DNA of 32,000 bases from Acaryochloris thomasi RCC1774 (GCF_003231495.1 NZ_PQWO01000009.1:180001-212000); one strand, 5' to 3'; counted from the stretch's first letter, positions 2,971 through 29,993 are shown. Notes: generated by a model from the letters alone, not told the origin. Program-made: numbers and translations.

Positions 2971-5073
2971 TCAGACTTGGGCGTACTCTCCGGTCAGCTT
3001 AGTCAGCTGCTGTACCAAAAGACTGAGGAATAGGCCAACATCGGTGACAACGCCGATCGACTCAATGGAACCGCGATCGCTGAGCTTTGTTACCACCGCT
3101 GGATTAATATCCACACAGACCATCTTCACGCCCGCAGGCGTCATGTTGCCCACACCAATAGAATGCAGCATCGTTGACAGCATCAAAATCAGGTCTGCGC
3201 CTTCAATCAGGCGCGCATAGTCGGCCTGAGCCTCCAGTAAGTCCATCTTGGTATCCGGCAGGGGGCCATCATCTCGGATCGACCCAGCCAGAGAGAAGGG
3301 AACGTTGTGCTTGACGCATTCGTACATCACGCCGCTGCGTAAGGTGCCCTGCTCCACCGCGTTAGCAATACTGCCGCAGCGACGAATGGCGTTAATCGCC
3401 TTGAGGTGATGACGGTGCCCGCCATGAACGGAGACGCCCCGCTTCATATCCATCCCCAGGGAGGTGCCCATCATGGATTGCTCGATGTCGTGAACGGCGA
3501 TCGCATTTCCCCCCAGAAGCGCATGAACATACCCCTCTCGAATCAGCCTGTTGAGATGCTCACTACCGCCGGTATGGATGACCACCGGCCCCGCCGTCAC
3601 CACGACTTTGCCGCCCTGATCTCGAATCCGGCGCAAGTCCCAGGCAATTTGTTCGACGACTAATTCCACGCGACGCTCACTGGAAACGCCAGCGCCCATG
3701 AAGCCAAATTCTTCCGATGCGCCTTTTTTGAGCGTTGTCGCTGTGCGCTTGGTGCGAATGCCCTCACTGCCGACCACAACTGATTCGCCGACCTGTAAAT
3801 CTCTCAGTAGCTTGCAGCGGGCAGCGATACCACTGTTAGTTTGAGTGATTGCGATCGCACCATCCATCCGCTGACCTTGAACCCTGATCCATTGCCCCTC
3901 GATCAAGACTTCGGTGGGATAGATCGCCGTCACATAGAAATCATCCGGCGCAACGCCCGCCTGAACAACGGCCTCTAGCTCAGCATCAACCGCTTCTTCC
4001 GTGACGCTCACCGCACCGAGGTCCACTAACTGCCCCATAATGTCGGCAATGACGTCCGTATCCGGGGCTGAAACCTTGACTTCTGCAGTCGAAATATCCT
4101 GACGCTGTTCGCCCAGATCAAAATTTAGAACCTGGAAACTGCCGCCCCCCGCCACAATCGTATCCAGCGCTCGATTGACTAGACCCGTATCGAGTAAATG
4201 GCCTTCAAGATGAACAATACGACTTTGAATCGTGGAAGCCTGGGGCGAAGCGTGGCGCGGCTCTGTGGTCCTTAGAGTCAGACATTTGGCAGCCCCACCC
4301 GCCTTCAGAAATTCTGTGAGGGGCGTTTCAACCACGGTAAAGCCACAATCGCCGAGGCTTTGCTTGAGGCGATCGCTAACGTGGTTCATCACCACCACGC
4401 GATCAATATTTACGGCGTTACAGGCAAAGGTAACGGCATCTACCTCCTCAACCGCAATTCGCTTCTCAGCCGGGACACGCCGCTCAATCAAGTGATTGGA
4501 GTAGGTGTCAAAAGCTGGCGGATAGTAGAGCAGATACCCGTCCGTAAGCGGACAAAAGCAGGTATCTAGGTGGTAGAAGCGCCGGTCGACTAACCGCAGG
4601 GACAGCACTTCTACATCTAACCACTGGGCCAAATAAGGGTGGGAGTCCAGTTCAGAGCGAAACCCGTAGCCCGCCCATAGCCAGCCTCCGGCCCGATCGA
4701 GCAGCGCATCTCCGGCTCCTTCAAAGGGCAGGCTTTTGGGCAACGTATGCACGGTGTAGCCCTGATCTGTAAACCACTGTTGGAAATAGGGTTCTTCACC
4801 CTGCCGTTCAGGATGGAAAAAACGACTGAGCACGACGGTGTTGTCTAGAACCAGCCCTGCATTAGCGGTAAAAACCATATCTGGCCACCCCGGTTGAGGC
4901 TCCACTAGATCAACCGTCGCGTAGGTTTTCAAGACCCGATGCAGCTCATCCCACTGCAGTTCAGCACGGTCCCGCGACGAACGATGGATATTGCCCTCCA
5001 TCCAAGGGTTGATCACGTAATCGACATCATAATGATGCGGGGCACACATCAAAATTCGTACTGAATCGGTCAT
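2971..5073 (-). CDS. agrE: Bifunctional arginine dihydrolase / ornithine cyclodeaminase-like enzyme (guanidine-removing N-domain plus LOR/SDH-like C-domain)
   Basis: 700 aa. The N-terminus, MTDSVRILMCAPHHYDVDYVINPWMEGN...WPDMVFTANAG...FEGAGDAL...FYHLDTCFCPL...GGAAKCLTLR, is the amidinotransferase-fold signature that I recognise from Synechocystis ArgZ (Sll1336) and Anabaena AgrE (Alr4995). Both length and two-domain layout match. Confidence 0.88.
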   Translation of the reverse strand: MTDSVRILMCAPHHYDVDYVINPWMEGNIHRSSRDRAELQWDELHRVLKTYATVDLVEPQPGWPDMVFTANAGLVLDNTVVLSRFFHPERQGEEPYFQQWFTDQGYTVHTLPKSLPFEGAGDALLDRAGGWLWAGYGFRSELDSHPYLAQWLDVEVLSLRLVDRRFYHLDTCFCPLTDGYLLYYPPAFDTYSNHLIERRVPAEKRIAVEEVDAVTFACNAVNIDRVVVMNHVSDRLKQSLGDCGFTVVETPLTEFLKAGGAAKCLTLRTTEPRHASPQASTIQSRIVHLEGHLLDTGLVNRALDTIVAGGGSFQVLNFDLGEQRQDISTAEVKVSAPDTDVIADIMGQLVDLGAVSVTEEAVDAELEAVVQAGVAPDDFYVTAIYPTEVLIEGQWIRVQGQRMDGAIAITQTNSGIAARCKLLRDLQVGESVVVGSEGIRTKRTATTLKKGASEEFGFMGAGVSSERRVELVVEQIAWDLRRIRDQGGKVVVTAGPVVIHTGGSEHLNRLIREGYVHALLGGNAIAVHDIEQSMMGTSLGMDMKRGVSVHGGHRHHLKAINAIRRCGSIANAVEQGTLRSGVMYECVKHNVPFSLAGSIRDDGPLPDTKMDLLEAQADYARLIEGADLILMLSTMLHSIGVGNMTPAGVKMVCVDINPAVVTKLSDRGSIESIGVVTDVGLFLSLLVQQLTKLTGEYAQV

Positions 5074-7937: not shown

Positions 7938-8870
7938 ATGTCAAATTCTTATTCCTTGATGATTCATGGTGGTTCAGGTTCTTTGGAGGATCTGAAATAC
8001 GAGGCAGGCGAAGCCGAGTTCAGGGAGAGCATCAACACAATTCTAGAGAAGGGCCGTCATCGCCTAGAACAAGGAGATAGCGCCCTAGATGTGGTGGAGT
8101 ACTGCGTAACGCTTTTAGAGAATGATCGACTTTATAACGCAGGGCGAGGATCTGTTCTCAATGCCAAGGGAAAAGTAGAAATGGATGCCGCGATCATGAG
8201 CGGGAGAGATCTAGGGGCAGGGGCAGTAGCCTGCGTTGAGCAGGTTAAAAACCCGATCGCTGTGGCGCGTCGCGTGCTGGAGAAAGGAGAGCATGTCCTG
8301 CTGATGGGGTATGGAGCATTAGAATTTGCAAAATTGTGCCAGCTCGAAACCTGCCCTGAGGATTATTTCATTACTGAAAACCGGATTCAGCAGTTAGCAG
8401 AGGCACAGGCTGCAGGGCGAATTACGTTAGACCATGAGCGCGTCAAGCCACACTCCGAAAAACTAGGAACAGTGGGAGCTGTTGCCCGCGATCTGCAAGG
8501 TGATCTTGCAGCGGCAACTTCTACGGGGGGATTGGTGAACAATCACTGGGGCCGAGTCGGGGATACGCCAGTCGTTGGGGCGGGCGTATATGCCGACAAC
8601 CAAAGCTGTGCAGTCTCGGCAACTGGCTATGGAGAGGAGTTCTTGCGCACGGTGTTAGCGAAAACAATTTCTGTGTTTGTTGAATTTAAGGGCATGGATG
8701 CTGAGGCGGCAGCGAAGGCCGGGGTTGATTATCTAGTCAGGCGCGTGCAGGGAGAGGGTGGAGTGATTGTTATTGATACTGCGGGGCGTTGTGCTGCAGC
8801 TCAGTCAACGTCGGGCCTGATTTGCGGCTGGATTGAGATGGGGGGAGAAGCACACTGCACCTTAGGTTAA
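7938..8870 (+). CDS. iaaA: Isoaspartyl peptidase / L-asparaginase (plant-type Ntn hydrolase); candidate beta-Asp-Arg dipeptidase
   Basis: 310 aa. It starts LMIHGGSG, has the autoprocessing and nucleophile site EKLGTVGAVARD, then STGG and VVGAGVYAD. These are the standard motifs of the IaaA/All3922 family. Confidence 0.88.
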   Translation: MSNSYSLMIHGGSGSLEDLKYEAGEAEFRESINTILEKGRHRLEQGDSALDVVEYCVTLLENDRLYNAGRGSVLNAKGKVEMDAAIMSGRDLGAGAVACVEQVKNPIAVARRVLEKGEHVLLMGYGALEFAKLCQLETCPEDYFITENRIQQLAEAQAAGRITLDHERVKPHSEKLGTVGAVARDLQGDLAAATSTGGLVNNHWGRVGDTPVVGAGVYADNQSCAVSATGYGEEFLRTVLAKTISVFVEFKGMDAEAAAKAGVDYLVRRVQGEGGVIVIDTAGRCAAAQSTSGLICGWIEMGGEAHCTLG

Positions 8871-9047: not shown

Positions 9048-11000
9048 CTAAATCAGCTCTGGATCAGACATGATTTCTACTAAGGCAGGCCCTTGGTGCG
9101 TTAGCGCTTGAGCGATTGCGTCATCAAGTTCGTTCTGCTGTGTAACTCGGATACCGAACCCACCGCAATTCTGAGCATATTTAGAAAAATCAGGATTGTG
9201 CAATGAGGTTTGCCAGACATCCCATTCGCCTGCCCGCTGCTCTTTAGAGATTTTACCCAACTGATCGTTATGGAGCAGGATATGGGTAATGTTCATCTGG
9301 TATTTTACGGCTGTTGTAAATTCAGCCAAATATTGACCAAAGCCTCCATCTCCTGAGACTGAGATAATGCGGCGCTCATGGCCTGCGGCGGCCCAAGCTC
9401 CCATCGCAGCAGGGAAGGCAAATCCGATGGAGCCAAGGTAGCCCGACATTAAAACGGACTGGGCCTGACATTCAAAGTAGCGACCAAAGGAGTAGGTGTT
9501 GTTACCCACATCTACGGCAATCACGGCATCGGCAGAGACTTGGCGGGTCATGGCAGCAAAGATAGAGGCTGAGTTTAACCCTTGGCCTCGATCATCGGCT
9601 TCGCGACGAGCTTTTTCAGTTCGCCAAATGGTCCAGTGGTCTTGAATTTGCGATCGCACATCCTCTGTATCCACCTGCCCTGTAAGCGCTGTATTCAACT
9701 GCTCCACCACAACGCTGATTTCGCCCCAAACCGGCACCTCGACGGGATGGAATTTCCCTAGCGCCAGCGGGTCAAAATCCACTTGGATAATCGGCTTACC
9801 AGGATAAATTCCGGTGTGATTAGAAAACGAGGCTCCTAACACCAGCAACACATCAGCCTCATTCATGAACCAACTGGCAATGGGGGTGCCACTGCGTCCC
9901 AAGACTCCGCAGCCGAGGGGGTGACGGTCCGAGATCTGTCCTTTCCCCTTAAAGGTCGTGAGAATAGGCGCTCCCAATAGTTCTGCAAGTTCCGTAATAG
10001 CAGGCATATGGAAACGGGCACCATGCCCAACAATGATCACCGGGCGGCGGGATTGCTTGAGGCGATCAATAGCCTCAAGCAACGACTCAGGCGGCGGCGC
10101 AATCTGTAAGGGTGTCATCCGTCCGGCGGGGTTAGAAGCAGGTACATCCACCGCAGGCTGCATCTGAACTTCATCAGGAAAAATCAGGTGAGAGACATTT
10201 CGCTCTAATAGGGCATGTTTGACGGCTAGGGTCATTAACTCAGCGTGTTGGCTGTGGCTGAGCACCGTTTGGCTCCAAGCAGCTACGCCACTGAAGGCGG
10301 CCTGTAAATCACACTCTTGAAAATTGCCTGTGCCCAAAACCTGAGAATTGACCTGTCCCGTCAAGGCTAAAATCGGAGCGCGATCGACTTTTGCATCCCA
10401 CATGCCCGTGAGTAGGTTTGTTGCACCCGGTCCGGCAATAGTTAAGCAGGCCGCAGGTTTACCTGTCAGCTTTGCGTAGGCTGAGGCGGCGAAGGCAGCA
10501 GCTCCTTCATGGCGAATGCCGATATAGGTGAGCTTACCTTGTACCTCTTGACGGCGGAGTGCGTCTGCGAGGCCTAAATTAGAATGACCCACCATGCCGA
10601 AGACATGGGTGATACCCCAGTTCACCATCGTTTCCGCCATCACATCACTCACGGTGCGGGTGTGGGGTTGTTCAACGGGTAAGCCGACGTATATGCCATC
10701 CGCACGCACCTCTACTGGAAAGGTTGCGAGGGCATCATCAACGTCCAAAGCGTCGGGGGACTTGCCGGTTAGCGGGCAGTAGTCCCACCCGTGCCAAGGG
10801 CAGCGTAGGAGACCGTTTTCAATGGAGCCCTCACCGAGGGGACCGCCTTGGTGGGGACAGCGATTATCGAGGGCACCATATTGGCCTTTGTAATGGGTTA
10901 AGGCAAGGCTTTTATGGCCCGCCACTACAGTTTTGACACGGCTCTCAGGTAATTCGTCCAAACCTAGAACGCGGTACCACTGGGTTGTTATCTCCGGCAT
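9048..11000 (-). CDS. Rieske [2Fe-2S] domain fused to a thiamine-diphosphate-dependent enzyme (acetolactate synthase / pyruvate oxidase superfamily)
   Basis: The N-terminus carries the Rieske motif CPHQGGPL...(16)...CPWHGWDY. The TPP N-domain follows (IRHEGAAAFAASAYAKLTGKPAACLTIAGPGATNLLTGMWDA), then the TPP-binding motif GDGGFGQYLAEFTTAVKYQMNITHILLHNDQLG. The ORF track starts at a TTG (11015). I prefer the ATG at 11000, which is preceded by GAGGAGAGAG. Confidence 0.85.
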   Translation of the reverse strand: MPEITTQWYRVLGLDELPESRVKTVVAGHKSLALTHYKGQYGALDNRCPHQGGPLGEGSIENGLLRCPWHGWDYCPLTGKSPDALDVDDALATFPVEVRADGIYVGLPVEQPHTRTVSDVMAETMVNWGITHVFGMVGHSNLGLADALRRQEVQGKLTYIGIRHEGAAAFAASAYAKLTGKPAACLTIAGPGATNLLTGMWDAKVDRAPILALTGQVNSQVLGTGNFQECDLQAAFSGVAAWSQTVLSHSQHAELMTLAVKHALLERNVSHLIFPDEVQMQPAVDVPASNPAGRMTPLQIAPPPESLLEAIDRLKQSRRPVIIVGHGARFHMPAITELAELLGAPILTTFKGKGQISDRHPLGCGVLGRSGTPIASWFMNEADVLLVLGASFSNHTGIYPGKPIIQVDFDPLALGKFHPVEVPVWGEISVVVEQLNTALTGQVDTEDVRSQIQDHWTIWRTEKARREADDRGQGLNSASIFAAMTRQVSADAVIAVDVGNNTYSFGRYFECQAQSVLMSGYLGSIGFAFPAAMGAWAAAGHERRIISVSGDGGFGQYLAEFTTAVKYQMNITHILLHNDQLGKISKEQRAGEWDVWQTSLHNPDFSKYAQNCGGFGIRVTQQNELDDAIAQALTHQGPALVEIMSDPELI

Positions 11001-11022
11001 AGTCTCTCTCCTCAATCAAAAT

Positions 11023-15931: not shown

Positions 15932-18900
15932 CTAATTCTCAATCAACCGTTTTTGATAGTCTTGGACCGTCAGTTTCTGCTCAATATCGGCTCTGACCCG
16001 AACGACGCGCTTATGAATCTTGCTCAGGCGATGGACAAAGCGAGTTTTCACGTCAGGATTGAGCTTCCTATTAGTGTAAACAGGTGTTCCATTTTTGAGA
16101 TGAACATCAACGCCTCTGTTCGTCTGTTGAAAAATAAACACTTCGCCTTCAAATCGTCCGTTTTTACCCAGTATATTGATCACATCTTTCAGCGCAGGAT
16201 CGAGAGTGTTGGAATCAACTGATGGCACGGTTTTCTCAGGCTTCTCTCGGGCGATCGCACCTAATTCTCTGCCCATTTCGAAGGTCATCTTGGCTGCGAT
16301 GCGAGTAAAGACAAATGAGATCGCAACTACTGTCCCTCCAATATCAAGAACCTGTTCAGCAACCTGCTTCGCAACGGGTGCTTTTTCTTTAGTCCAGCGC
16401 CTGATCTTGACCTCTTGCTGAGCCTCCCACGCTTTGATATCGTGCTGCTTAATAGCCTCAGACAACGCAGCCAATTCCTGACGTGCTCGTTCAGCCGTCT
16501 TCTCCGCCGCACTGACTTCAGACTGTATTGTCTCGATCTGAGTGCGGATCAGACTGCTCTTCTTCTGCTCCAAATTTGTTTGCGCTTCTGGAGAATCGAG
16601 TTCTTCAGACACAGCGAGAGCAGGAGCAACGGTCGTTCTTTCAGGCGCAGCAACAACTGCAGAGGCCTGGGAAATATAGTTCTGCAAAACAGTCTGTGGC
16701 TTAAGACCATTCTTGAATTGGACCCACAGATTCGTCGGATCATTTTGATCGGACAACTGTGAATCTTCTGTACTTAAGTCACTTTCAAGATCTAGATTTT
16801 CGTGAGCGATGGCAGATTCCTTTCTTTGTTGCTCCTTCTCAGAGACGATTTCAGTCCTAGACTCTGCATCTGATGCCCTCGGTTCTACCGCAAGAGAATC
16901 TGTGGCCGTGAAAGTCCCCCAGAATTTGAAGCCGTTGAGTTGTGTAGGCTTCTGCACTTGTACTAGGAGCTGTGGATTGGATGGGGCATACCGGAACGCT
17001 GGATACTCTTGACATAGCTCTCTAACTTGTTGCGCTGCCGACGCATCGCAAAGCAGCGGCAATGGCTCTTTAGACGTCGTTAGCACCACGTCTTTTAAGT
17101 TTATATATCGCTTAGGCACATTCGGCTGACTATCATCATCGAAAAAGTCCGCTGGCTCTGACGGTTTCTGATCGAAGCTGCGATAGGTCTGCAACGCTGC
17201 CCGGATCTGCTCTACTGTTACTCCTTGCACATAAGCAGTCAGGCTTGCGGCTAAGGCAGAGGCAATGGCAGCCGGCGAACAGCCACGGACTGTCAGCGGC
17301 AGATGTGCAACTTTTTCAATCCGCTTTACTTCGTCTTGCTGCAGAATCGAGAGGTAGCCCTGTTCATAGACGGCAGCGATTCCACCCTGCTGGAGATGAG
17401 ATCGCAACACCAAATTCTCAGGATCCATCGAGAAGTAGGCAACCTGGCCCTGAACCTGCTCCGCCATCGTGACAACCCGCTCGTCATCAGCATTCAGCAC
17501 AGCATAGCCATCTGCATGGACAGCGCCAGAAATCACAGATAGCGCTCTCGCCCTGTGGTCAAGCGTACAGGGACTTTGATCCGATGGCACATTCAGGACC
17601 ACCCCCACATCACAGTGCGAGAAGCCTAGCCCCGATCGCAAAATGCTGCTGTGGGAAGTCTCCAAAACAGCCATATCCACCGTCGGATCTTGCAAAATTA
17701 TCTGAGCGCTTTGAGCGTCGGTCGCACGGCCCTTTTTGACAGGATACTGACCAATAAAAGCACCATCTGCCGTTGTATAGCCCACAGAGTCCTTCACTTG
17801 ACCTAAGATATGCGAGATCAGAGGCGTAGGCGTTTCTGAGCCCCCCGTTTCTGCCACCGCCACCACCGGAATCTGAGTCGGCGCGCCGGCTGGGAACAGC
17901 ATGTCGAGAATTGGAGCTGCAACATTTCGGGCCACACCTTCGCTGGGGGCCATATGCATGCGCAGCCCAGGAGCCGCATTGACCTCCACAATCACGCCAT
18001 CCACGTCTTTTAACGGCTGGGTAATATCGGTCGTAATCACATCTATGCCAACAATATCGAGATCGATGATCCGTGAAGCCCGCTCTGCCAGCCACAGCGT
18101 ATCTGGATGGATCTCATCAGTCCGGTCAATTGCAGTCCCGCCCGTACTCAGATTGGCATTTGCCCGCAGGTAGCAAATTTGGTCCGGCTGTAAAACGGTA
18201 TCAAGGGTAAACCCTTGACGGCTCAGCATTTCATCGGTAGCGTTATCGAGCTTTATTTTAGTGAGCGGCGTATCGTGGCCTTCGCCCCGACGAGCATCTT
18301 TATTCTCTAGTTCAACCAAGTCAAAAATTGTGCTTTGGCCATTACCAACGATATGGGCAGGGACCCGCTCGGCTACCGCGACAACCTTGTGATTAACAAC
18401 TAAAATTCGATGATCTCGGCCCTGATAGAAATGCTCAACAATCACGCCATCAGAGATATCCTTAGCTCGGTCATAGGCAAACTCTGCCTGCCGCCAAGAG
18501 CGAATATCAATTGTGATCCCGCGACCTTGGTTCCCGTCTAGAGGCTTAACCACAATGGGATAGCCGCCCAGGTCATCAATGGCCTCTTCTAGATCGCGAA
18601 AGGCATAAATGACCTTCCCTAATGGAACGGGAGCGCCCATGCTCGTCAAAATTTCTTTGGTTCTTTCCTTATCACAGGCCAGCTCCACACCCAGAACGTT
18701 GCTGTGAGATGTTAGCGCTGCCTGAATCCGCTTCTGATGCTTGCCGGAACCAAACTGAAACAGATCACAGGTCTCTAGGTGTGTCCAGGGAATGCCTCGG
18801 TTTTCTGCTTCTTGAATCAATGCCTCAGTACTTGCTCCCTGAGCGGCTTCACTCCGTAAATTTCTCAGATCATCTAGATCTATTTGTAGTTCAGATTTGG

Positions 18901-19327
18901 GATAAACGCCCTTATCAAGGATACTTTGGCATAAACGCAGCGCAGCTCGGGTTGCATAGCGTCCGGCGTCTTCATTTTGGTACTCAATGGCAACCTGATA
19001 AGCGTCAGGAGAAGCTGTCTCGCAAGTACAGCCAAACGCCACTGGCATATCGGCCAATACCTGAAGTTCTAAAGCGACGTGCTTCAAAATATGCCCCATC
19101 ATGGAGCCTTGTAGTTCCTGATCTAGAGATGCTCCTCGATATTCTGGGGCATAAAGTTTTTGTTTCAGGCTGGGTAAAGTCTGCGTGAGACCATCCAAAA
19201 AGCCTGGAAGAGTATTAGAGGGACCATCGGAAACATCCTCCAAATCCAGCAGCACAACGATGAGCTTTGAGCAGCTAACGCTCCAATAGTTTGGACCTCG
19301 AAGCGTCTGAGTTTGAAGGATTTTCAT
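15932..19327 (-). CDS. Cyanophycin synthetase paralogue with an intact N domain and ATP-grasp (G) domain, a degenerate Mur-ligase (M) domain, and a novel C-terminal extension of about 410 aa
   Basis: From MKILQTQTLRGPNYWS (ATG at 19325-19327) the protein aligns colinearly with the CphA1 at 26107..28797 through ...VTVEQIRAALQTYRSF. Conservation in the G domain is very high (for example GVELACDKERTKEILT.MGAPVPLGKVIYAF; GVIVEVNAAPGLRMH). M-domain motifs are lost: GTNGKTTT becomes AETGGSET, ETARGG becomes ETSHSS, NVAADHLG becomes NVPSDQSP. The TPGR/DYAHNP/GGPGDRRD lobe is absent. It is replaced by an acidic/Ser-rich linker, a heptad-like region (EQKKSSLIRTQIETIQSEVSAAEKTAERARQELAALSEAIKQ), a hydrophobic segment (VLDIGGTVVAISFVFTRIAA) and a basic terminal domain. 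The 39 upstream codons in the ORF track are probably not translated. Confidence 0.88.
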   Translation of the reverse strand: MKILQTQTLRGPNYWSVSCSKLIVVLLDLEDVSDGPSNTLPGFLDGLTQTLPSLKQKLYAPEYRGASLDQELQGSMMGHILKHVALELQVLADMPVAFGCTCETASPDAYQVAIEYQNEDAGRYATRAALRLCQSILDKGVYPKSELQIDLDDLRNLRSEAAQGASTEALIQEAENRGIPWTHLETCDLFQFGSGKHQKRIQAALTSHSNVLGVELACDKERTKEILTSMGAPVPLGKVIYAFRDLEEAIDDLGGYPIVVKPLDGNQGRGITIDIRSWRQAEFAYDRAKDISDGVIVEHFYQGRDHRILVVNHKVVAVAERVPAHIVGNGQSTIFDLVELENKDARRGEGHDTPLTKIKLDNATDEMLSRQGFTLDTVLQPDQICYLRANANLSTGGTAIDRTDEIHPDTLWLAERASRIIDLDIVGIDVITTDITQPLKDVDGVIVEVNAAPGLRMHMAPSEGVARNVAAPILDMLFPAGAPTQIPVVAVAETGGSETPTPLISHILGQVKDSVGYTTADGAFIGQYPVKKGRATDAQSAQIILQDPTVDMAVLETSHSSILRSGLGFSHCDVGVVLNVPSDQSPCTLDHRARALSVISGAVHADGYAVLNADDERVVTMAEQVQGQVAYFSMDPENLVLRSHLQQGGIAAVYEQGYLSILQQDEVKRIEKVAHLPLTVRGCSPAAIASALAASLTAYVQGVTVEQIRAALQTYRSFDQKPSEPADFFDDDSQPNVPKRYINLKDVVLTTSKEPLPLLCDASAAQQVRELCQEYPAFRYAPSNPQLLVQVQKPTQLNGFKFWGTFTATDSLAVEPRASDAESRTEIVSEKEQQRKESAIAHENLDLESDLSTEDSQLSDQNDPTNLWVQFKNGLKPQTVLQNYISQASAVVAAPERTTVAPALAVSEELDSPEAQTNLEQKKSSLIRTQIETIQSEVSAAEKTAERARQELAALSEAIKQHDIKAWEAQQEVKIRRWTKEKAPVAKQVAEQVLDIGGTVVAISFVFTRIAAKMTFEMGRELGAIAREKPEKTVPSVDSNTLDPALKDVINILGKNGRFEGEVFIFQQTNRGVDVHLKNGTPVYTNRKLNPDVKTRFVHRLSKIHKRVVRVRADIEQKLTVQDYQKRLIEN

Positions 19328-19580: not shown

Positions 19581-22500
19581 CTACTCTATGCCCTCAATCG
19601 GAGCAAAGCCCTGTCGCTGAATATTCTCTGTAACAGTACGGGGATCAAGAAACTGTAGTAAATAATCTGGCCCCCCAGCTTTAGAGCCAACCCCTGAAAG
19701 CTTATATCCCCCAAAGGGTTGCCGAGCGACGATCGCACCTGTAATGCTGCGATTGATGTATAAATTCCCTACTTCAAACTCCGTTTTGGCTTGTTCAATA
19801 TGGGATGGGGTGCGAGAGTACAGTCCACCCGTGAGCGCGAAGTTCGTGTTGTTTGCGATCGCAACTCCCTCTTCAAAACTCTGCGCCTTAATCACTGACA
19901 GAACCGGACCAAAAATTTCTTCCTGAGCCAGCGAACTGTGCGGATCAACCTCAGTAAAAATCACTGGCCCCACAAAGTAACCCGTCTCAGGCGCAGGCAA
20001 TTGCAAAGCCAGATTAGCTTCCGTCTTACCCTTATCAATCGTTTCACGAATTCGCTGCTGGGCTGCTTCATCAATCACGGGGCCAACCTTGGTCCCCGGA
20101 TCGGCGGCAATGCCAACATTCAGCGATTTTGTCGCTTCAACTAGCCGCGCCACAAACGCGTCGTAGACGGATGCTAGAACGACTACCCGAGAGCAAGCTG
20201 AACACTTTTGGCCGCTATAGCCAAAGGCGGAATACACAACTCCCTGGACCGCCTGGTCTAAATCAGCACTTTCATCAACGATTATGGCGTTTTTACCCCC
20301 CATTTCAGCTACCACACGCTTCAAATGCCTTTGACCGGGCTGCAGAACAGCAGCGTTGGCGTAGATTTCGCACCCCACTTCTTGAGAACCCGTAAACACA
20401 ATCATCTGGACTGCGGGATGTTTGACGAGGTGAGCGCCTACGGTGGAACCGCTACCTGGAACGTATTGAAATACCCCTTTAGGTATCCCGGCTTCCACAA
20501 GAATTTCGCTAAGTTTAGCCGCGATCACAGAGGTTACAGCGGCAGGCTTTAGCAAAACACAGTTTCCGGTGACTAGGGCCGCAACCGTCATCCCTGTAGG
20601 GATCGCAAGCGGAAAGTTCCAGGGGGAAATCACCAGCACAATGCCCTTGGGACGGTAGAAGTAGCGATCGCTCTCCCCGGCCACATCGTAGATAATCTTA
20701 GGATCCAAACGCTCCATCTCTGCTGCGTAGTATCGACAGAAATCTACAGCCTCTGAGACTTCTACATCGGCTTGCTGGAGAGGCTTGCCTGCTTCAAACA
20801 CCATCCAGGCATTGAGTTCATGACGACGCGCTTCAAGTAGATTTGCGGCCCGTCGCAGGATGTCGGCCCGCTCTTTCGCTGATGTGCGTTTCCAAGTTTG
20901 GAAAGCGGCTTTTGCGGCTGCGATCGCATCCTCTGCCTGAGCAATATTAATCTGCCCGACAGTCCCCACAATTTCTGTCGGATTAGATGGATTAACGGAT
21001 TGAACCTTCTTCTCTGTCTGCACCCGTTCTCCATCAATTAGCGGCCAATATTGTTGACCTAACTGTTGTTTGACGGCAGTGAGGGCAGATTCGGCTTGGG
21101 TTCGGTGGGTTGCGATCGCAAAATTAGTATCTGCAGAAGGATCAATCTGAGTCGCGGTCGTCGTCACGGGCATAGGCGTCGGTTCCACTTCGCTACCGTC
21201 CTGATCGCCCTCTCTCCACTGAGGCGCTGCTAACAGTTCTTCAATCGGAGTCTCGGTTAAACTTTGCCGCAGAAAAGAGCTATTGGCAGTGTTCTCTAGC
21301 AATCGTCGAATCAGATAGGCCATCCCTGGAATCAAAGCGCCGTAGGGACAGTAGACTCGTACTCGATGCCCCTGTTTTGCTAACGCTGCTGCTAGGTTGT
21401 CGGCCATACCGTACAAGACTTGAAATTCAATGTGTCGCTGCGGAATATTGAGGGTTTGAGCAATTGAGATCGCATGGGCCTGAGACCGAACATTGTGGCT
21501 ACCGATGGCGGCGTACAGATGCTCATGATTTTCTAAGAGCAACTGTGTCATGCGCTCAAAATTGGCGTCCGTGGAAGACTTGTGATTATAGACGGGCGTG
21601 GGCCAATGATTCTGGCGAGCAATGATGGTCTCTTGATCCCAGTAGGCTCCTTTGATCAGCCGCACCGTGATCGGTTTGCCCCGCTGTTTCGCCCATTCAA
21701 TCAGATCCTTCAAATCACCGTAGCTATCCCGGAGATAGGCTTGGAGTGTGATGCCGATGTTGTTGCGATCGCAAAACTCTTCCTCCATTAACAAAGACTT
21801 TAACGTCGCTAGCGTGGCATCTTTATAGCGGTACTGTTCCATATCAAAATGAACATCGGCACCCACTTCCTGCGCTCGACGGAGGAGAATGCGGATGCGA
21901 TCGCACACCGTTGTCTGAGACCCCTCTACATCTAACGGATCAAACTGAGAGTAAAACGCTGTCAACTTTAACGTCACCTGGACCTTAGCTAAATCATCCC
22001 CGTCAGCAGCGTCAATCTGGGGTACCGAAGACCACCGCCGAGAAACCTCTGTAAGCTGTCCCATTAACGCTAGATATTGATCGAGATAAGACTGAGCTTC
22101 TTTTTCCGTGATCACTGCCTCGCCTAAAACATCGATAGCGAAGGTCATCGATTGTTTACGGAGACGATTAATGGTCTTGAGAACCTGCTTCAGCGTTTCG
22201 CCTGCGATATATTTTTGTGCCAGGGTTGCAACTGAGGTGGACAGAGTCGTCGCCGCAACTTGTCCCGGTATTGAATCGGAAGCCGTGAAGTTAAGCAGCC
22301 GTTTCAACGCTTCCGGTAGTTCTACATCAGGAACGCTCAGATACTCCTGAAGATGACGGGCCATTTCAGCTTTGGTGGTCAAAGACGGCAAACAATCGAT
22401 CAGACGAAAGAGCTGCACCCGCAAACTGGGGTTGTCCATTGTCCAATTGAGCAGCTTATCGTCCCACCGGAATTGGTCTTGTATTTTAGCGAGGAGCGAT

Positions 22501-22604
22501 CGCTTTTCTGCGGTCTGCGCCAACAGCTCCCGCGCAATGGCCTGGGTCTTTTCTTCATAGAGAGGCGGAGTCGTAAGTTCAGAACGAGACGGATTCACAG
22601 TCAT
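19581..22604 (-). CDS. putA: Bifunctional proline dehydrogenase / delta-1-pyrroline-5-carboxylate dehydrogenase
   Basis: About 1007 aa. The N-terminal PRODH region reads FDMEQY...LQAYLRDS...VRLIKGAYWDQE...GSHN. The C-terminal ALDH has the catalytic Glu (VAEMGGKNAIIVD) and Cys (GYSGQKCSACSRVVV). The ORF track starts at a TTG (22625); the ATG at 22604 (MTVNPS) is more likely. Confidence 0.9.
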   Translation of the reverse strand: MTVNPSRSELTTPPLYEEKTQAIARELLAQTAEKRSLLAKIQDQFRWDDKLLNWTMDNPSLRVQLFRLIDCLPSLTTKAEMARHLQEYLSVPDVELPEALKRLLNFTASDSIPGQVAATTLSTSVATLAQKYIAGETLKQVLKTINRLRKQSMTFAIDVLGEAVITEKEAQSYLDQYLALMGQLTEVSRRWSSVPQIDAADGDDLAKVQVTLKLTAFYSQFDPLDVEGSQTTVCDRIRILLRRAQEVGADVHFDMEQYRYKDATLATLKSLLMEEEFCDRNNIGITLQAYLRDSYGDLKDLIEWAKQRGKPITVRLIKGAYWDQETIIARQNHWPTPVYNHKSSTDANFERMTQLLLENHEHLYAAIGSHNVRSQAHAISIAQTLNIPQRHIEFQVLYGMADNLAAALAKQGHRVRVYCPYGALIPGMAYLIRRLLENTANSSFLRQSLTETPIEELLAAPQWREGDQDGSEVEPTPMPVTTTATQIDPSADTNFAIATHRTQAESALTAVKQQLGQQYWPLIDGERVQTEKKVQSVNPSNPTEIVGTVGQINIAQAEDAIAAAKAAFQTWKRTSAKERADILRRAANLLEARRHELNAWMVFEAGKPLQQADVEVSEAVDFCRYYAAEMERLDPKIIYDVAGESDRYFYRPKGIVLVISPWNFPLAIPTGMTVAALVTGNCVLLKPAAVTSVIAAKLSEILVEAGIPKGVFQYVPGSGSTVGAHLVKHPAVQMIVFTGSQEVGCEIYANAAVLQPGQRHLKRVVAEMGGKNAIIVDESADLDQAVQGVVYSAFGYSGQKCSACSRVVVLASVYDAFVARLVEATKSLNVGIAADPGTKVGPVIDEAAQQRIRETIDKGKTEANLALQLPAPETGYFVGPVIFTEVDPHSSLAQEEIFGPVLSVIKAQSFEEGVAIANNTNFALTGGLYSRTPSHIEQAKTEFEVGNLYINRSITGAIVARQPFGGYKLSGVGSKAGGPDYLLQFLDPRTVTENIQRQGFAPIEGIE

Positions 22605-22753
22605 CAAACAACCTGCTTCATACAAACCTAGACAATCTTCGACAAACAGGTCGATATTTAATTGGTGTTTTAGAACTGGAGTGCCCCTCCAGCTTCATAT
22701 CAATCTTAATAACTGAAAAGGTATCCCGCACTCAGTCACGCCGTGTCTGCTGA

Positions 22754-23878
22754 TTAAATATCTAGGGGGCTACGAACGCTCAAAGTACCTTGATTGAGAA
22801 CATGGGTATAAATCATCGTGGTTTTTACGTCTTTGTGCCCTAATAAGTAGATAGGCTCAATTGACTTGAAGATTCCTGATTAATTTCAATATCGTTGCAT
22901 TGGCCCTCACCCCCAGCCCCCCTCTCCCAATGTTGGGAGAGGGGGGCTGGGGGTGAGGGCCATGTAGAGCATTTGCTAATATCTGATCTTTAACTTGATT
23001 CTGCCTCGCCACTTAGCTCCTGAACGGTACGAATGTCATAGCCGTTTTGCCGCAAATGAGTCGCAAAGCTATGGCGAAGCGTGTGACAGCTTACTTTCTT
23101 AGCTATTTGAGCTTGGTGGGCTGCTTTCTTGAGCGAGTGCTGCAGAAAACCATCGCCTAAACGATGTCGCTGTTCTCTACCACTGCGAGGATCGGTGCTG
23201 CGCCGTTGAGCCGGAAAAACATATTGCCAAATCCATTCTTGTTCTGCGTTGGGATATTTGCGATCAAGGGCGTGGGGTAACGGTGCTATATCCTTGAGCT
23301 AGCTCATCTTGCTGCAGTTGCTTAACGTAGACGAGATGGGCCTGTAGGAGTTCAATGAGACTTTGTGGAAGAACGGTGATTCGGTCTTTATTACCTTTGG
23401 CATTCCGCACCATCACTTGAGACTGACCAAAATCAAGATCTTTCACTCGCTAGGCGTAGCCCTTCTTTGACCCGCATCTCAGCTTAGCCAAGAGCTGTTG
23501 AATCCCCTCTAGTGCCTGCAATAAACGCTGAAACTCATCGGCCGTCAACACTGTAGGTAAATGCTTGGACTGTCTGGCCCGAACTACATCAATAGATTCG
23601 GCTAAAGGCTGTTTCAGTACCTGCCGATAGAGAACCAGCAAGGCACTGAGCGCTTGATTTTGGGTGGATGCTGCCACATCTCCGTTAACGGCTAAATGGG
23701 TGAAGAATGCCTTTACTTCGGCCTCGCCCATTTCTTGGGGATGCCGTTTATGGTGAAACAGAATAAAGCGCCGGATCCACCAAACATAAGTTTTTTCTGT
23801 GCGATGGGCATAGTGCTTGACTCGCAGTGCATCGCGCACCTGATCAAGCAGCTTTCTGGGCTTGGTGAGTTCTTCCAT
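22754..23878 (-). pseudogene. intI: Integron-type tyrosine recombinase (IntI-like) pseudogene, disrupted by frameshifts, an in-frame stop and a MITE insertion
   Basis: N-terminus: LDQVRDALRVKHYAHRTEKTYVWWIRRFILFHHKRHPQEMGEAEVKAFFTHLAVNGDVAASTQNQALSALLVLYRQVL. A stop and frame changes occur around 23445-23490 (the GMRVKEGLRL stretch sits in another frame). VKDLDFGQSQVMVRNAKGNKDRITVLPQSL follows. A frameshift occurs near 23283. Next comes [41 protein letters not shown], which is the IntI-specific extra domain, then [14 protein letters not shown]...[10 protein letters not shown]. The MITE interrupts at this point. The frame resumes after it with [29 protein letters not shown] and a stop. Confidence 0.85.
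22846..23013 (-). mobile_element. MITE copy B (168 bp), inserted in the intI pseudogene with a TA target-site duplication
   Basis: Flanked by TA at 22844-22845 and 23014-23015. Removing the element plus one TA restores gtt cag gag cta tta ggg cac, which reads VQELLGH. That is exactly the conserved recombinase box II junction. The centre is a 29-bp perfect inverted repeat (22902..22961, GGCCCTCACCCCCAGCCCCCCTCTCCCAA tg TTGGGAGAGGGGGGCTGGGGGTGAGGGCC). Confidence 0.85.
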
Positions 23879-24168
23879 ATGAGCTGGATAATAGCTATGG
23901 GAGGAAATTTATATAGATGAATGCAGTCTAAATCGCTACCACTTCCTAGGCAAAAGCTTCTAAAACTCCTATGGAATGATGCATATAGCGATTTCAGGAT
24001 TGGTTTCTATATTTAAACCTTACAAGATATGTATTCGTGAAGACTCAGGTGTTACTCTTCTACAAAAGCTGCCAAATTTAGACTTTAGCAGTTAATGACT
24101 CTAAATAAGCAAGCTTTTTAGTCCGCGAACTGCAGACTAAATATAGTCAGACCTTTGATATTGACATC

Positions 24169-24546
24169 ATGGATTTTGATAAATTTTCAATTAGTGAGTT
24201 TCAAAGGCGAGGTCTTAACAGTACTTCTTCTCGTAAGCTAGCAGATGAACTTGAGGAAGCTGCATTGCAAGAGATTCATAGTGTTCTAATGCCGACGATG
24301 AATAAAATCATTGATGAGCTTAATAAACGTGGGCACCAACTGACATTTTATGAAGATCCGATACCAGGAGATATTTCATATAGACACAAAGATGGTGATG
24401 GAGAGATGGGGTTAAGAATTGCTGTTGACACTATCATTTCAACTGGATATTCTCACCTATATGACAACAATCAATCAGATGAAGAGATAATTGAAGAAGT
24501 GGTTGATAATTTATGTAAGCTTATCGAGCCGACAGATCTAATTTGA
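24169..24546 (+). CDS. Hypothetical acidic protein (integron cassette ORF 1)
   Basis: 125-aa ORF, AT-rich, with no HIP1 and no motif that I recognise. It is the first ORF downstream of, and divergent from, the intI pseudogene, and an attC-like site follows it. Confidence 0.55.
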   Translation: MDFDKFSISEFQRRGLNSTSSRKLADELEEAALQEIHSVLMPTMNKIIDELNKRGHQLTFYEDPIPGDISYRHKDGDGEMGLRIAVDTIISTGYSHLYDNNQSDEEIIEEVVDNLCKLIEPTDLI

Positions 24547-24590
24547 GAGTTTTTTTCGATTATCACAAAATCCATACTTTCTGAGCTATG

Positions 24591-26106: not shown

Positions 26107-28797
26107 TTAAGTCTTGATTCCATCCAGGCAGATATCTGCATTTTTAAAATCGGCTGATCGTGCCTCCTCTGGCTTTTCAACAATTGGATTTCGAGCCTTA
26201 ATCAATGAGATTGTTCGACTAACATTATCAGGAAAAACAACGACAAGCGACTCTTTAGGGGCATTATCTAGTGCCCATATAATGGCCTCTGCTTCGTCTA
26301 GGCGAACAGAGTGGGAGGCTGCCGACTCAGCCCCGCCCTGACAGATGCCCTGAACAATTAGCTCTGCGGCATTACCGGGAGCGCGACCCCGCCCATCATC
26401 ATCTTCTTTAACAATAATCTGATCGAAGAACGTCGCCGAGAGTTTGCCGAGATCAATTAAATCTTGATCGCGGCGATCACCCGGTCCCCCGACCACGCCA
26501 ATGGCAGGGCCAGTCCAGTTTTTGACAAAGCCCCCTACCGCTTTATATCCGGCTGGGTTATGGGCATAGTCCACCAGTACGTGAAATTGGCCGAGGTTGA
26601 AGAGATTCATACGTCCCGGCGTCTGCTGTTCTGAGGCTTTAAAACTGTGCAGAGCCGCCTGAATCTGCTTGACGGTCACGCCTTGGACATAGGCAGCTAG
26701 ACTTGCCGCCAGAGCATTAGCAATCATGAACGGAGCCATTCCACCCAGCGTTACCGGAACTTGTTTAACGTGCTCAATACGGTGAACCTGATCCTGCTGC
26801 ACAATGGTTAGGTAGCCTTGGTCGTAGACGGCAGCGATTCCACCCTGCTTGAGGTGCGATCGCAACACTTCATTTTCAGGATCCATCGAAAAATAGGCCA
26901 CTTTTCCGGGCACCTGCGCCGCCATTGCCGCGACTCGCGGATCATCAGCATTAAGAACAGCATAGCCATCGGGATGCACCGTCTCAGCGATCACTCCTTT
27001 GACCCTGGCCAACTGATCAACGGTATTAATATCTCCTAGCCCCAAATGGTCCGCCGCCACGTTCAGAACGACTCCCACATCACACTGTGAAAAGGCCAAG
27101 CCCGAACGCAAAATACCGCCCCGAGCTGTTTCAAGAACCGCAATATCCACCGTCGGATCCTGCAGAACCATTTGTGCACTCAGGGGGCCTGTGGTGTCTC
27201 CCTTCTCGACGAGGCGATCGCCGATATAGATGCCGTCGGTGGTCGTAAAGCCCACAGCATCATAAACCTGACGGCAAATATGGGCAATGAGTCGCGTGGT
27301 GGTGGTTTTGCCATTGGTACCCGTCACCGCCACAATGGGCACCCGAGTCGGCGTCCCCGGCGGAAACAGCATCTTAATGATGGGTGCTGCCACATTACGA
27401 GCGCGGCCTTCACTAGGTGCAATGTGCATCCGTAACCCGGGTGCTGCGTTAACCTCAACAATCACGCCATCTGCCTGGCTCAGGGGTTGAGTGATATCAG
27501 TTGTAATCACATCAATCCCTGCAATATCGAGGTCAATAATGCGAGATACCCGTTCCGCTAACCAAACAGTTTCTGGATGAATCTCATCGGTGCGGTCAAT
27601 GGCAATGCCGCCCGTACTGAGGTTGGCTGTTGCGCGCAGGTAACCAATTTGATTGGGCTGCAAAACAGTGTCAACGGTGAACCCTTGACGGCTCAGCATG
27701 GCATCAGTGGCGTCGTCCAGTTGAATATGGGTGAGGATGTTGTCGTGCCCCGCGCCCCGACGATGATCTCGATTCTCTTGTTCAACAAGGGCTGCAATTG
27801 TGTCTTTACCATTGCCAACTACGTGAGCCGGGACGCGCTCTGCAACCGCGACAACTTTGTGGTTAACGACCAGAATGCGATGATCTCGGCCCTGATAGAA
27901 ATGTTCGACAATCACGCCTGTAGAAATATCCTTGGCTCGGTCGTAGGCAATTTCTACCTGTTCTTTTGACTGAATATCAATGGTGATCCCGCGACCGTGA
28001 TTTCCATCTAAGGGCTTTATCACAATCGGATAGCCACCCAAGTCTTCAATCGCGTTATCTAATTCGCTAAAGGCATAAATCACTTTACCCAATGGAACCG
28101 GCGCACCCATACGCGTCAGAATTTCTTTAGTCCGTTCCTTATCGCAGGCTAATTCGACCCCCAAAACGTTGCTATGGGAGGTGAGTGCTGCCTGTAGTCG
28201 CTTTTGGTATTTGCCGTATCCAAGCTGATGGAGATCGCAATTCTCTAGCTCCATCCACGGGATATTGAGGGCTTCTGCCTCGCGGATCAGCGCCTCGGTG
28301 CTCGCCCCTAGGGCGGCTTCAGTACGCAGCTCAACCAAATCTTCTAAATCCGTTTGCAGTTCAGCTTCAGGGTAGGTGCCTGTTTCAGCCAAGCTCTTAC
28401 ATAAACGGTGGGCAGCTCGGGTGGCATAGCGACCGGCGGCTTCATTTTGATATTCAATTGCAACTTGATAAACGCCGGGGGTTACCGTCTCGCGGGTACG
28501 ACCAAACCCCACCTCCATGCCCGCTAAAACCTGGAGTTCTAGCGCCACATGCTCTAGGATATGCCCCACCATGGTGCCTTCCTGGACCCGGCTGAGAAAC
28601 CCACCCCGACACCCTGGCGAGCAGTGATGCTCTTCTAGGCTAGGTAAAACCGAGATTAATCCGTTGTAGAACCCTGGAATCGTATCAGACGGACGGTTAG
28701 CCAAGTCCTCCAGGTCCAGCCGAATGAGAATCAACTTTGCCCGACGAATACTCCAGTAGTTAGGGCCTCGAAGCGTTTGGGTTTGGAGAATTTTCAT
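26107..28797 (-). CDS. cphA: Cyanophycin synthetase (CphA1 type; N, ATP-grasp G and complete Mur-ligase M domains)
   Basis: 896 aa. Starts MKILQTQTLRGPNYWS and has an ATP-grasp core. The P-loop VTGTNGKTTTTRL is at about 27295-27330. ETARGGILR, NVAADHLG, TPGRMN, VDYAHNPAGY and GGPGDRRD are all present. Confidence 0.95.
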   Translation of the reverse strand: MKILQTQTLRGPNYWSIRRAKLILIRLDLEDLANRPSDTIPGFYNGLISVLPSLEEHHCSPGCRGGFLSRVQEGTMVGHILEHVALELQVLAGMEVGFGRTRETVTPGVYQVAIEYQNEAAGRYATRAAHRLCKSLAETGTYPEAELQTDLEDLVELRTEAALGASTEALIREAEALNIPWMELENCDLHQLGYGKYQKRLQAALTSHSNVLGVELACDKERTKEILTRMGAPVPLGKVIYAFSELDNAIEDLGGYPIVIKPLDGNHGRGITIDIQSKEQVEIAYDRAKDISTGVIVEHFYQGRDHRILVVNHKVVAVAERVPAHVVGNGKDTIAALVEQENRDHRRGAGHDNILTHIQLDDATDAMLSRQGFTVDTVLQPNQIGYLRATANLSTGGIAIDRTDEIHPETVWLAERVSRIIDLDIAGIDVITTDITQPLSQADGVIVEVNAAPGLRMHIAPSEGRARNVAAPIIKMLFPPGTPTRVPIVAVTGTNGKTTTTRLIAHICRQVYDAVGFTTTDGIYIGDRLVEKGDTTGPLSAQMVLQDPTVDIAVLETARGGILRSGLAFSQCDVGVVLNVAADHLGLGDINTVDQLARVKGVIAETVHPDGYAVLNADDPRVAAMAAQVPGKVAYFSMDPENEVLRSHLKQGGIAAVYDQGYLTIVQQDQVHRIEHVKQVPVTLGGMAPFMIANALAASLAAYVQGVTVKQIQAALHSFKASEQQTPGRMNLFNLGQFHVLVDYAHNPAGYKAVGGFVKNWTGPAIGVVGGPGDRRDQDLIDLGKLSATFFDQIIVKEDDDGRGRAPGNAAELIVQGICQGGAESAASHSVRLDEAEAIIWALDNAPKESLVVVFPDNVSRTISLIKARNPIVEKPEEARSADFKNADICLDGIKT

Positions 28798-29183: not shown

Positions 29184-29993
29184 CTAAGACGGCAAAACAG
29201 TCCGATGCTGATAGTGGTAGAGATCGCCCCGGTTTAGAATGTGCACGGTTAGATTGTGCAAACTGAGGGGAGACGTTTCGTCTGACTCTGGGTGATTCGT
29301 ATAGGCCAATTCCCCTGGATCGATGACGGTGATCGACCCCTTACCCAATATTTCAAAGCTCCCATCCCCTCTGAAGGCAGCACAGGTATCTTCGTCAATG
29401 CCCATCCCTAGCTTCTCAGGATACGTTGCGATCGCACTGAGTAATCGAGCCATCCGATTGCGATTATGGAAGTGCTGATCCACCAACACTTCAGGAATAA
29501 TTCCTAACCCATCCATCAAATCGACGAGTGAGCGGTTGGGAGATTCACCACTGCTGCCCCCCGAGATCATTTTTTCGCCCATAATGGCAGCGCCAGCGCT
29601 GGTTCCAGCAAGGACAAGCGAGCCCAGATGAAGCCGCTTTCTGATAGCTGCAATAAATTTACTATCGTTGATGAAGTGGAAAAGACGAACCTGATCGCCA
29701 CCTGTCACAAAGACACCCGTACAGTCATCTAAGATATCGAGCCAGCGCAGCTCATCACACTCATGGGGTCGCCGAATATCAAGAACCTCAACCCGGTGCG
29801 CCCCCATTCTCTTGAAGATCTGGTAATAGCGATCGCCGACCGCACTGGGTTCTTGTGAAGCGCAGGGAATAATGCCGATGGTTGCTAGCTTTCCGCCTGC
29901 ACTCTCGAAAAAGGCGGTTAATATACTGCACTCATTGACCTTATCTTCTGCTCCACCAATAACCATAATTGGGTACTGGGTCGGAATTACCAT
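29184..29993 (-). CDS. cphB: Cyanophycinase (S51 serine peptidase)
   Basis: 269 aa. Motifs are IMVIGGAEDK, VFVTGGDQ, the catalytic-Ser motif LAGTSAGAAIMG, and VDQHF..RNR..RL. It sits upstream of and co-directional with cphA, the classic cphBA arrangement. Confidence 0.93.
   Translation of the reverse strand: MVIPTQYPIMVIGGAEDKVNECSILTAFFESAGGKLATIGIIPCASQEPSAVGDRYYQIFKRMGAHRVEVLDIRRPHECDELRWLDILDDCTGVFVTGGDQVRLFHFINDSKFIAAIRKRLHLGSLVLAGTSAGAAIMGEKMISGGSSGESPNRSLVDLMDGLGIIPEVLVDQHFHNRNRMARLLSAIATYPEKLGMGIDEDTCAAFRGDGSFEILGKGSITVIDPGELAYTNHPESDETSPLSLHNLTVHILNRGDLYHYQHRTVLPS

Follow-up and report, generated by a model that had tools for sequence, protein, structure and literature searches.

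Cyanophycin synthesis is currently explained by two types of enzymes: CphA1, which has three active sites, and CphA2, which uses its G domain only. A Cx19HxxEH motif is found in about 80% of the CphA1 proteins and is hence typical, not obligatory. In the N domain of most CphA1 enzymes this motif forms a metallopeptidase site that makes primers (PMC9262961). The CphA2 proteins (~636 amino acids, aa) have an N-G-M organization in which a truncated M domain shows no activity and G provides the sole active site (PMC10273328); they lack the N-domain motif (PMC9262961). Here we analyzed a stretch of 32,000 nucleotides (nt) of Acaryochloris thomasi RCC1774 (GCF_003231495.1 NZ_PQWO01000009.1:180001-212000, the window), which carries a long-tail paralogue of cphA, termed LT-cphA (15932..19327, minus strand). 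In architecture, its product, LT-CphA, makes up a third type of cyanophycin synthetase-like protein, whose losses converge on those of CphA2 and whose gains are unusual. We found no prior description of the clade that it represents or of its tail in the literature, subscription-only papers not being covered.

A second cphA gene in the window

The LT-cphA open reading frame (ORF) starts with an ATG and encodes 1131 aa followed by a stop codon; its product, of an expected 125 kDa, is 100% identical to a protein of A. thomasi RCC1774 that is annotated "Cyanophycin synthetase". A bona fide cphA1 is located upstream (26107..28797, minus strand). Its 896-aa product is the CphA1 of the same strain, encoded on the same 215-kb contig as LT-CphA, and it contains both the Mur_ligase_M and the Mur_ligase_C domains. 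Against the NCBIfam models for cyanophycin synthetases, this CphA1 scores 1209.6 bits (TIGR02068, cutoff 850) and 1172.5 bits (NF010623), whereas LT-CphA falls below both cutoffs (841.8 versus 850 and 871.6 versus 877) and its matches end at model position ~714-728 of 862-871.

When the two proteins of the window were aligned by BLASTP, 513 of 734 positions were identical (70%) and the similarity stopped at about residue 722 (nt ~17162). The two proteins are therefore colinear over about 720 residues and then diverge, as the original prediction had described. The synonymous divergence (dS) between the two genes is ~1.9 and their nucleotide identity 70%, which argues for an old duplication and against a duplicate created during assembly, again in agreement with what had been deduced from the differences between the paralogues. 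The HIP1 octamer GCGATCGC occurs 25 times in the window for 0.45 copies expected. One copy had been noticed around position 16250, in the extension of LT-cphA; it was found precisely at 16251..16258, inside the tail, and it is the sole copy within the 3.4-kb gene, as compared with eight in the adjacent putA. All together, these results support the view that LT-cphA is a true second paralogue of cphA, resident in this genome, with an arginine-adding domain predicted to be dead and a new tail. A scan for promoters and terminators around the gene gave counts no higher than those of shuffled sequence.

Substitutions in the three active sites

LT-CphA keeps the core (Mcore) of the Mur-ligase-like M domain (aa 486-720; 17168..17872, minus strand). 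Its fold appears to be preserved: in the AlphaFold2 (AF2) model, the predicted local distance difference test (pLDDT) score exceeds 90 over residues 490-720. However, the Pfam Mur_ligase_M score drops from 92 bits in the CphA1 of the window to 21 bits, below threshold, in LT-CphA, and the lid of the domain (Mlid, Mur_ligase_C) is missing. The destruction of the M motifs, already noted in the original prediction, was borne out by translation. The P-loop, of the GTNGKT type in CphA1, reads AETGGSET (17831..17854, amended from 17825..17854), ETARGG is changed to ETSHSS (17645..17662) and NVAADH to NVPSDQ (17576..17593). The catalytic and motif positions that we scored were invariant, 27 out of 27, in all 90 of the 90 nearest CphA1 sequences; the changes seen in LT-CphA, including those of the M motifs, are thus not tolerated variants. 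In TeCphA1, deletion of Mlid strongly reduces activity (PMC9427784). Lacking Mlid as well as the P-loop lysine, the GG pair and His584, the M domain of LT-CphA, as judged from its predicted residues, cannot work.

A second predicted loss, that of the peptidase site in the N domain (aa 1-160; 18848..19327, minus strand; PF18921, 92 bits), had escaped the original prediction. Here the Cx19HxxEH motif is altered by C59Y (19151..19153) and by the change of HILEH to HILKH (E82K, 19079..19093). H57K and R70Q are further replacements, and R100 and R102 are also changed. In SuCphA1, the E82Q substitution abolished primer-independent activity (PMC9262961).

The ATP-grasp G domain (aa 161-485; 17873..18847, minus strand) had been described as almost unchanged. 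This holds for the domain as a whole: LT-CphA retains 159 of the 164 G-domain positions that are invariant in CphA1 (97%), compared with 81% in the N domain and 68% in the M domain. It does not hold for the active site: of the five altered positions, two lie there, H267Q in the P-loop of the G domain (18527..18529) and T390N in the large loop (18158..18160; T392 in Te numbering). In the set E215, K220, K261, H267, R309, R323, N394, S396, G456 and R458 (Te numbering), nine of ten residues are kept (E215, K220, K261, R307, R321, N392, S394, G454 and R456 in LT-CphA), H267Q being the exception; likewise, H267 is the only one not retained among the ATP-, Mg-, acyl-phosphate- and Asp-binding residues named in the structural study from which the residue roles were taken (PMC9427784). 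In that study, H267 was proposed to stabilize the acyl-phosphate, the H267A substitution lowered the activity of both the Te and the Su CphA1, and the large loop around T390 was found to bind the incoming substrate (PMC9427784). All three CphA1 active sites are thus touched by substitutions in LT-CphA, the G site being otherwise predicted to be intact.

A family of long-tail proteins

The same fusion was searched for elsewhere. A search with the full-length protein retrieved protein clusters of 975-1154 aa, at least 28 in number, in which Mur_ligase_C (PF02875) is missing and the similarity to CphA1 ends at the same point. In an unrooted neighbor-joining (NJ) tree of residues 1-720, which did not include CphA2 sequences, 28 long-tail sequences were split from 92 CphA1 sequences (bootstrap 92/100), and eight of them formed an A. 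thomasi branch (100/100). The long-tail clade lies among CphA1 sequences of the Thermosynechococcales type. Because the clade evolves faster than CphA1, long-branch attraction may affect its split from CphA1; with midpoint rooting the clade looks paraphyletic, which we attribute to the accelerated rates, and we thus rely on the unrooted split. The members of the clade have derived states in common: TTRL is changed to PTPL, GG560-561 to DE, DD or SS, and His584 to Gln or Arg. These shared states and the shared tail argue for a single origin of the clade.

The decay of the active sites is graded within the family. Many members have kept the lysine of the M P-loop and the N motif, both of which are lost in the A. 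thomasi branch. Q267 and N390 are fixed in 8/8 members of this branch; most other family members keep H267 and T390. When relatives were sought by genome scanning with patterns from a narrow alignment, they were only found in Acaryochloridaceae, Thermosynechococcaceae and metagenome-assembled genomes (MAGs) of Kovacikia; one complete Altericista genome (CCNU0014; CP137338) also carries a long-tail gene, the product of which has H267 and an intact M P-loop. Scans of genomes and metagenomes with patterns derived from a two-sequence alignment of the tail found nothing, and a word-indexed search with the tail only, an insensitive method, returned one fragment (P0001), which bears out the fusion.

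We compared codons in two pairs of long-tail genes. Between LT-cphA and P0003, the ratio of nonsynonymous to synonymous substitution rates (dN/dS) was 0.26 in the N domain, 0.047 in the G domain, 0.115 in Mcore, 0.32 in the linker that follows Mcore and 0.14 in the C-terminal module; between P0005 and P0006, the corresponding values were 0.16, 0.12, 0.30, 0.37 and 0.18. The G domain is thus the most constrained region, and the overall dN/dS of LT-cphA relative to its closest relative is 0.15. Since dN/dS stays below 0.4 in every region (0.047-0.37), the single ORF that runs across the junction is taken to be real and functional. The continuity of the ORF over nt ~17160, on which the original prediction depended, is further supported by the conservation of the fusion in the at least 28 clusters and by the values of 0.14-0.37 in the linker and tail.

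These data also bear on the possibility that LT-cphA is a decaying duplicate, or that an error of assembly or annotation fused a truncated cphA to a downstream gene. Destroyed catalytic motifs and a low-complexity region past the junction are what such an event might leave behind, but genomes and metagenomes of independent origin share the same continuous ORF, free of stops, purifying selection acts on all segments, the linker among them, and the distance to cphA1 is that of an old duplicate that has been retained. We therefore rejected this explanation, which has become hardly credible. All together, the comparisons show that LT-CphA belongs to a small, vertically maintained family derived from a duplicated cphA1 whose mobile M lid was swapped for the tail. 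Following this swap, decay reached the M active site of every member and the N peptidase site of many; the G domain remained tightly constrained.

Two other proteins were observed at the margins of the family. P0059 (1072 aa, from a 3-Mb ENA contig) shares the C-terminal module and the absence of Mlid with the long-tail proteins, its N, G and Mcore motifs being fully intact; the NJ tree places it with CphA1, apart from the long-tail clade. It may be an early intermediate or result from an independent capture of the module. P0138 (223 aa), encoded on a 43.8-kb contig together with the CphA1 protein P0025, combines PF18921 with a partial match to the tail profile (E = 7.6e-10); it may derive from a long-tail gene, truncated or left as a remnant, beside a normal cphA1.

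Comparison with CphA2

The original prediction had proposed a CphA2-like dipeptide polymerase, which raised the question of a canonical CphA2 as opposed to an independent loss of M function. LT-CphA does show the loss pattern of CphA2, an inactive M domain together with an absent N-domain motif. As in the CphA2 proteins of known structure (GcCphA2, 7ta5; StCphA2, 8fxh), only the G domain is plausibly active, the M domain is vestigial and a cyanophycinase is co-encoded. The protein could therefore be regarded as a canonical CphA2 with an appendage, given that an inactive M domain, a lost N motif and linkage to a cyanophycinase are all known from that group (PMC10273328). Nevertheless, this assignment is very improbable. 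LT-CphA matches the CphA1 structures with 889 and 880 bits (TeCphA1, 7wac; SuCphA1, 7lg5), compared with 251 and 226 bits for the two CphA2 structures; it is 70% identical to the CphA1 of the window, and the family falls among CphA1 sequences in the tree, which was built from long-tail and CphA1 sequences. Moreover, CphA2 (~630-640 aa) has an M remnant of ~150 aa and no tail, whereas LT-CphA keeps an Mcore of ~235 aa and adds 410 aa. The G P-loop also differs: it reads KPLDGNQGRGIT in LT-CphA, KPLDGNHGRGIT in CphA1 and KPV(I/A)GHKGIGVT in CphA2, so that the GNQG of LT-CphA stands against GHKG, with a lysine at position 267, in both solved CphA2 structures. Membership in CphA2 was rejected on these grounds (bit scores, Mcore, G P-loop and tree position).

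The CphA1-like scores, the full Mcore and a G P-loop unlike that of CphA2 thus argue that M function was lost independently. LT-CphA resembles CphA1 in the colinearity of these three regions, in the retention of nearly all G catalytic residues and in its linkage to cphB; it differs from CphA1 by the absence of Mlid, the destruction of the M P-loop, ETARGG and DH motifs and of Cx19HxxEH, the H267Q and T390N substitutions and the unrelated tail of ~410 aa. The proposed dipeptide polymerase activity remains the best functional guess; membership in CphA2 does not stand.

The tail and its relatives in conjugative elements

Behind Mcore, in the place of Mlid, lies a linker rich in acidic residues, Ser, Pro, Gln and Thr (aa 721-920; 16568..17167, minus strand) with a net charge of -15. 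It is predicted to be disordered (AF2 pLDDT <40 for residues 720-922), and it is poorly conserved in sequence despite the low dN/dS reported above. It is followed by a conserved module, the helical part of which (aa 921-1035; 16223..16567, minus strand) was delineated from AF2 helices and from an alignment with the clade and with stand-alone relatives. This part, the helices of which are amphipathic, comprises a long helix (918-960), an RW.KEKAPVAKQ element and a hydrophobic helix (993-1011; 16295..16351). With a score of 1.70 in its best 19-residue Kyte-Doolittle window, the hydrophobic helix is a borderline case of a membrane span, and AF2 gives it a low pLDDT. Among the relatives, the matching segment has Arg, Asp or Lys residues in it or gives way to amphipathic repeats; it is not hydrophobic in all of them. 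The protein ends with a small alpha/beta domain (aa 1036-1131; 15935..16222, minus strand) that bears the motif GK.GRFEGEVF.FQQT..GVDVHLK.GTPVY. This domain is basic (net charge +7), and AF2 predicts a compact fold at ~1039-1117 with pLDDT values of 93-97 over the core. The tail had been described as an acidic linker, a coiled coil, a hydrophobic segment and a basic end; the acidic linker, the helices and the basic terminal domain were recovered, and the linker proved to be predicted as disordered.

No such tail is known as an appendage of CphA2. In the last 409 residues, Pfam and NCBIfam detected no family, only sub-threshold coiled-coil noise; a sequence search of the tail against the PDB gave no match, and Foldseek searches of its model against the PDB and BFVD gave no usable match (best E = 0.46 and 0.078, respectively). 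However, an exhaustive search of 1.84 billion representative sequences with a profile of the tail retrieved 31 proteins, consisting of fragments of the long-tail clade and of stand-alone proteins (E = 1e-33 to 1e-5 for the latter). The latter (300-870 aa) have a different N-terminal domain, helical repeats made of 22-residue amphipathic units of the KEQAPVVKEAVIAGAKQ type, and a C-terminal domain as in the tail. Over the last ~200 aa they are homologous to the tail of LT-CphA (for example P0125, P0127, P0135 and P0152, E = 1e-12 to 1e-33), with W.KEQAPV.K helices and a GKDGRFEG..F.F....G..V.LKDGTPV domain in common; GKDGRFEG...LKDGTPV is conserved in the alignment. Their N-terminal domain is unrelated to LT-CphA and none is fused to an enzyme, in contrast to the module of LT-CphA. 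Pfam and NCBIfam made no assignment in ten of these stand-alone proteins, coiled-coil noise remaining below threshold, and a tblastn search with one of them found no match among the PLSDB plasmids.

In all four loci that we examined, the stand-alone genes (L008, 4913-7417; L009, 6942-9197 and 4479-6095; L010, 2324-3676; L016, 10001-11089) lie inside a conserved conjugative module. Here the gene for a type IV coupling protein (T4CP, TraG/TrwB) is followed by a 121-aa gene, a ~550-aa paralogue and a 111-aa gene, after which come the stand-alone gene and one for an AAA ATPase. L009 and L016 also carry a TrwC relaxase gene in the vicinity; in the two remaining loci, the contigs are too short to show one. 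LT-cphA itself lies outside any such T4CP - 111-aa - X - AAA ATPase module, in a chromosomal cph/arginine cluster. Since the stand-alone relatives are found in conjugative modules in 4/4 loci, the tail module was most likely captured from a protein of a mobile element involved in conjugative transfer.

Possible functions of LT-CphA

The reading that we favor, although tentatively, is that LT-CphA is a G-domain-only ligase, convergent with CphA2 and tethered by its tail. Acting alone, the G domain would take hold of a cyanophycin chain at its C-terminus, use ATP to activate this end as an acyl-phosphate and lengthen the chain. The most plausible substrate would be the dipeptide beta-Asp-Arg, which CphB, the cyanophycinase encoded alongside, sets free; this would make LT-CphA a convergent functional analogue of CphA2 in the re-polymerization of beta-Asp-Arg. 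The Mcore remnant would act as a structural and oligomerization scaffold, and the flexible tail would hold the protein at the granule, at a membrane, at another protein or at some other surface or partner; this tethering role we purely infer.

Several points weigh against this proposal. In the A. thomasi branch, both H267 and T390, which are invariant in CphA1, are replaced, and H267A lowers CphA1 activity; the G site of this branch may thus be altered or dead rather than CphA2-like. The GNQG signature of its P-loop is unlike the CphA2 GHKG. The determinants of specificity for beta-Asp-Arg versus Asp are not known even for CphA2 (PMC10273328), and the substrate therefore cannot be read from the sequence. 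The hydrophobic helix is a borderline membrane span at best, and no function is known for the tail module in its relatives from conjugative elements. Regarding position 267, however, CphA2 has a lysine there, hence a residue other than histidine is compatible with dipeptide polymerization; given that H267 is not required in CphA2, H267Q need not kill a dipeptide polymerase.

The same substitutions invite the main rival explanation, in which LT-CphA is a non-catalytic pseudoenzyme or scaffold that binds chain ends or co-assembles with CphA1 tetramers, the tail positioning, nucleating or regulating granule synthesis. The A. thomasi branch is indeed substituted at experimentally important residues of the N (C59Y, E82K), G (H267Q, T390N) and M (P-loop, GG, His) domains. 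The protein has kept E215, through which cyanophycin is contacted across the G-G dimer, together with the Mcore that forms interfaces, and tethers are typically laid out as a long disordered linker with a binding domain at the end. However, the constraint on the G domain (dN/dS 0.047) and the retention of K220, K261, R307, R321, G454 and R456 exceed what binding alone would need. Q267 and N390 are fixed in the whole branch across dS >1.3, which looks like retuning rather than decay, most family members keep H267 and T390, and CphA2 is active despite its lysine at 267. A scaffold is thus rather unlikely; its relevance is greatest for the A. thomasi branch, given the fixed Q267 and N390. A more far-reaching reading, which we regard as possible but doubtful, would make the long-tail proteins a third functional class and more than a look-alike of CphA2: the G site would be retuned or silenced (Q267 and N390 in the A. 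thomasi branch) and would bind chain ends, and the conjugation-derived tail would anchor or organize granule synthesis and turnover at a particular site in the cell, possibly in mixed oligomers with CphA1.

Retuning could also mean a new reaction. LT-CphA would then be a neofunctionalized ATP-grasp ligase that performs Asp-only extension or makes primers for CphA1, or that uses another amine or acceptor, with H267Q and T390N retuning the A. thomasi branch. The two coupled, fixed changes fall exactly in the acyl-phosphate loop and in the loop that receives the incoming substrate (roles from PMC9427784), and the gene is linked to cphA1, cphB, putA, iaaA and argZ. Yet the CphA1-type G site is unchanged in most of the family, which makes a new substrate unnecessary to explain the family, and poly-Asp devoid of arginine is a product not normally used by CphA1 chemistry. 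We consider this explanation improbable, and retain the tethered G-domain-only ligase as our working proposal.

Genomic context

The window is a cyanophycin and arginine-catabolism supercluster, composed of argZ, a transglutaminase-like gene, an Asparaginase_2 gene, LT-cphA, putA, cphA1 and cphB. The putA gene (proline dehydrogenase and pyrroline-5-carboxylate (P5C) dehydrogenase; 19581..22625, minus strand) is immediately upstream of LT-cphA; it was identified by its 82% identity to the putA of locus L012 and by the Pfam domains of its L004 orthologue. The cyanophycinase gene cphB (29184..29993, minus strand) encodes a protein of the Peptidase_S51 type, 75-77% identical to the Peptidase_S51 gene products of L012 and L014, where these genes sit between LT-cphA and cphA1. 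Further away are an isoaspartyl dipeptidase/asparaginase gene of the iaaA type (7938..8870, plus strand; Asparaginase_2, 327 bits), an argZ-type arginine dihydrolase gene (2971..5073, minus strand; Pfam ArgZ-like_C domains and Saccharop_dh_N) and the transglutaminase-like gene (5772-7484, plus strand). The last two also flank the long-tail gene on the metagenomic contig L003.

In four other loci, from Altericista (L002), two Acaryochloridaceae MAGs (L004 and L014) and a Thermosynechococcus-labelled MAG (L012), the long-tail gene is directly upstream of cphB-cphA1 on one strand, and putA comes next after cphA1 in two of them (L004 and L012). Most of the family shows the order long-tail cphA - cphB - cphA1 - putA. 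In the window, L003 and L005, which represent the A. thomasi branch, the long-tail gene has been relocated to a place just downstream of putA, the order being cphB - cphA1 - putA - long-tail cphA. The branch with this altered gene order is also the one with predicted dead N and M sites and with Q267 and N390.

In the window, putA and cphA1, which adjoin in L004 and L012, are separated by an apparent insertion (22626-26106). It contains a truncated integrase-like ORF (23450-23878, minus strand), small ORFs and an NTP_transf_6 nucleotidyltransferase gene (24691-25236, plus strand); the G+C content goes down to 0.39 at 24-25 kb of the window. Elsewhere, a 655-aa ORF (9048-11015, minus strand) combines an N-terminal Rieske [2Fe-2S] domain with a complete thiamine pyrophosphate (TPP) enzyme (TPP_enzyme_N, M and C), an uncommon combination.

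Implications for the cyanophycin synthetase family

With the long-tail family, CphA1 would have given rise to a G-only or non-catalytic protein a second time and independently. Intermediates are still visible, some members having kept the M P-loop and P0059 all motifs. The family would thus provide a natural series for asking which features of CphA1 are needed for what, how specificity for Asp or beta-Asp-Arg is encoded and whether dedicated granule organizers exist. It would also represent a case in which a core nitrogen-storage enzyme captured a domain of conjugative-element proteins. Last, annotations as "cyanophycin synthetase" in Acaryochloridaceae and Thermosynechococcaceae genomes hide proteins that are predicted to be unable to add arginine.

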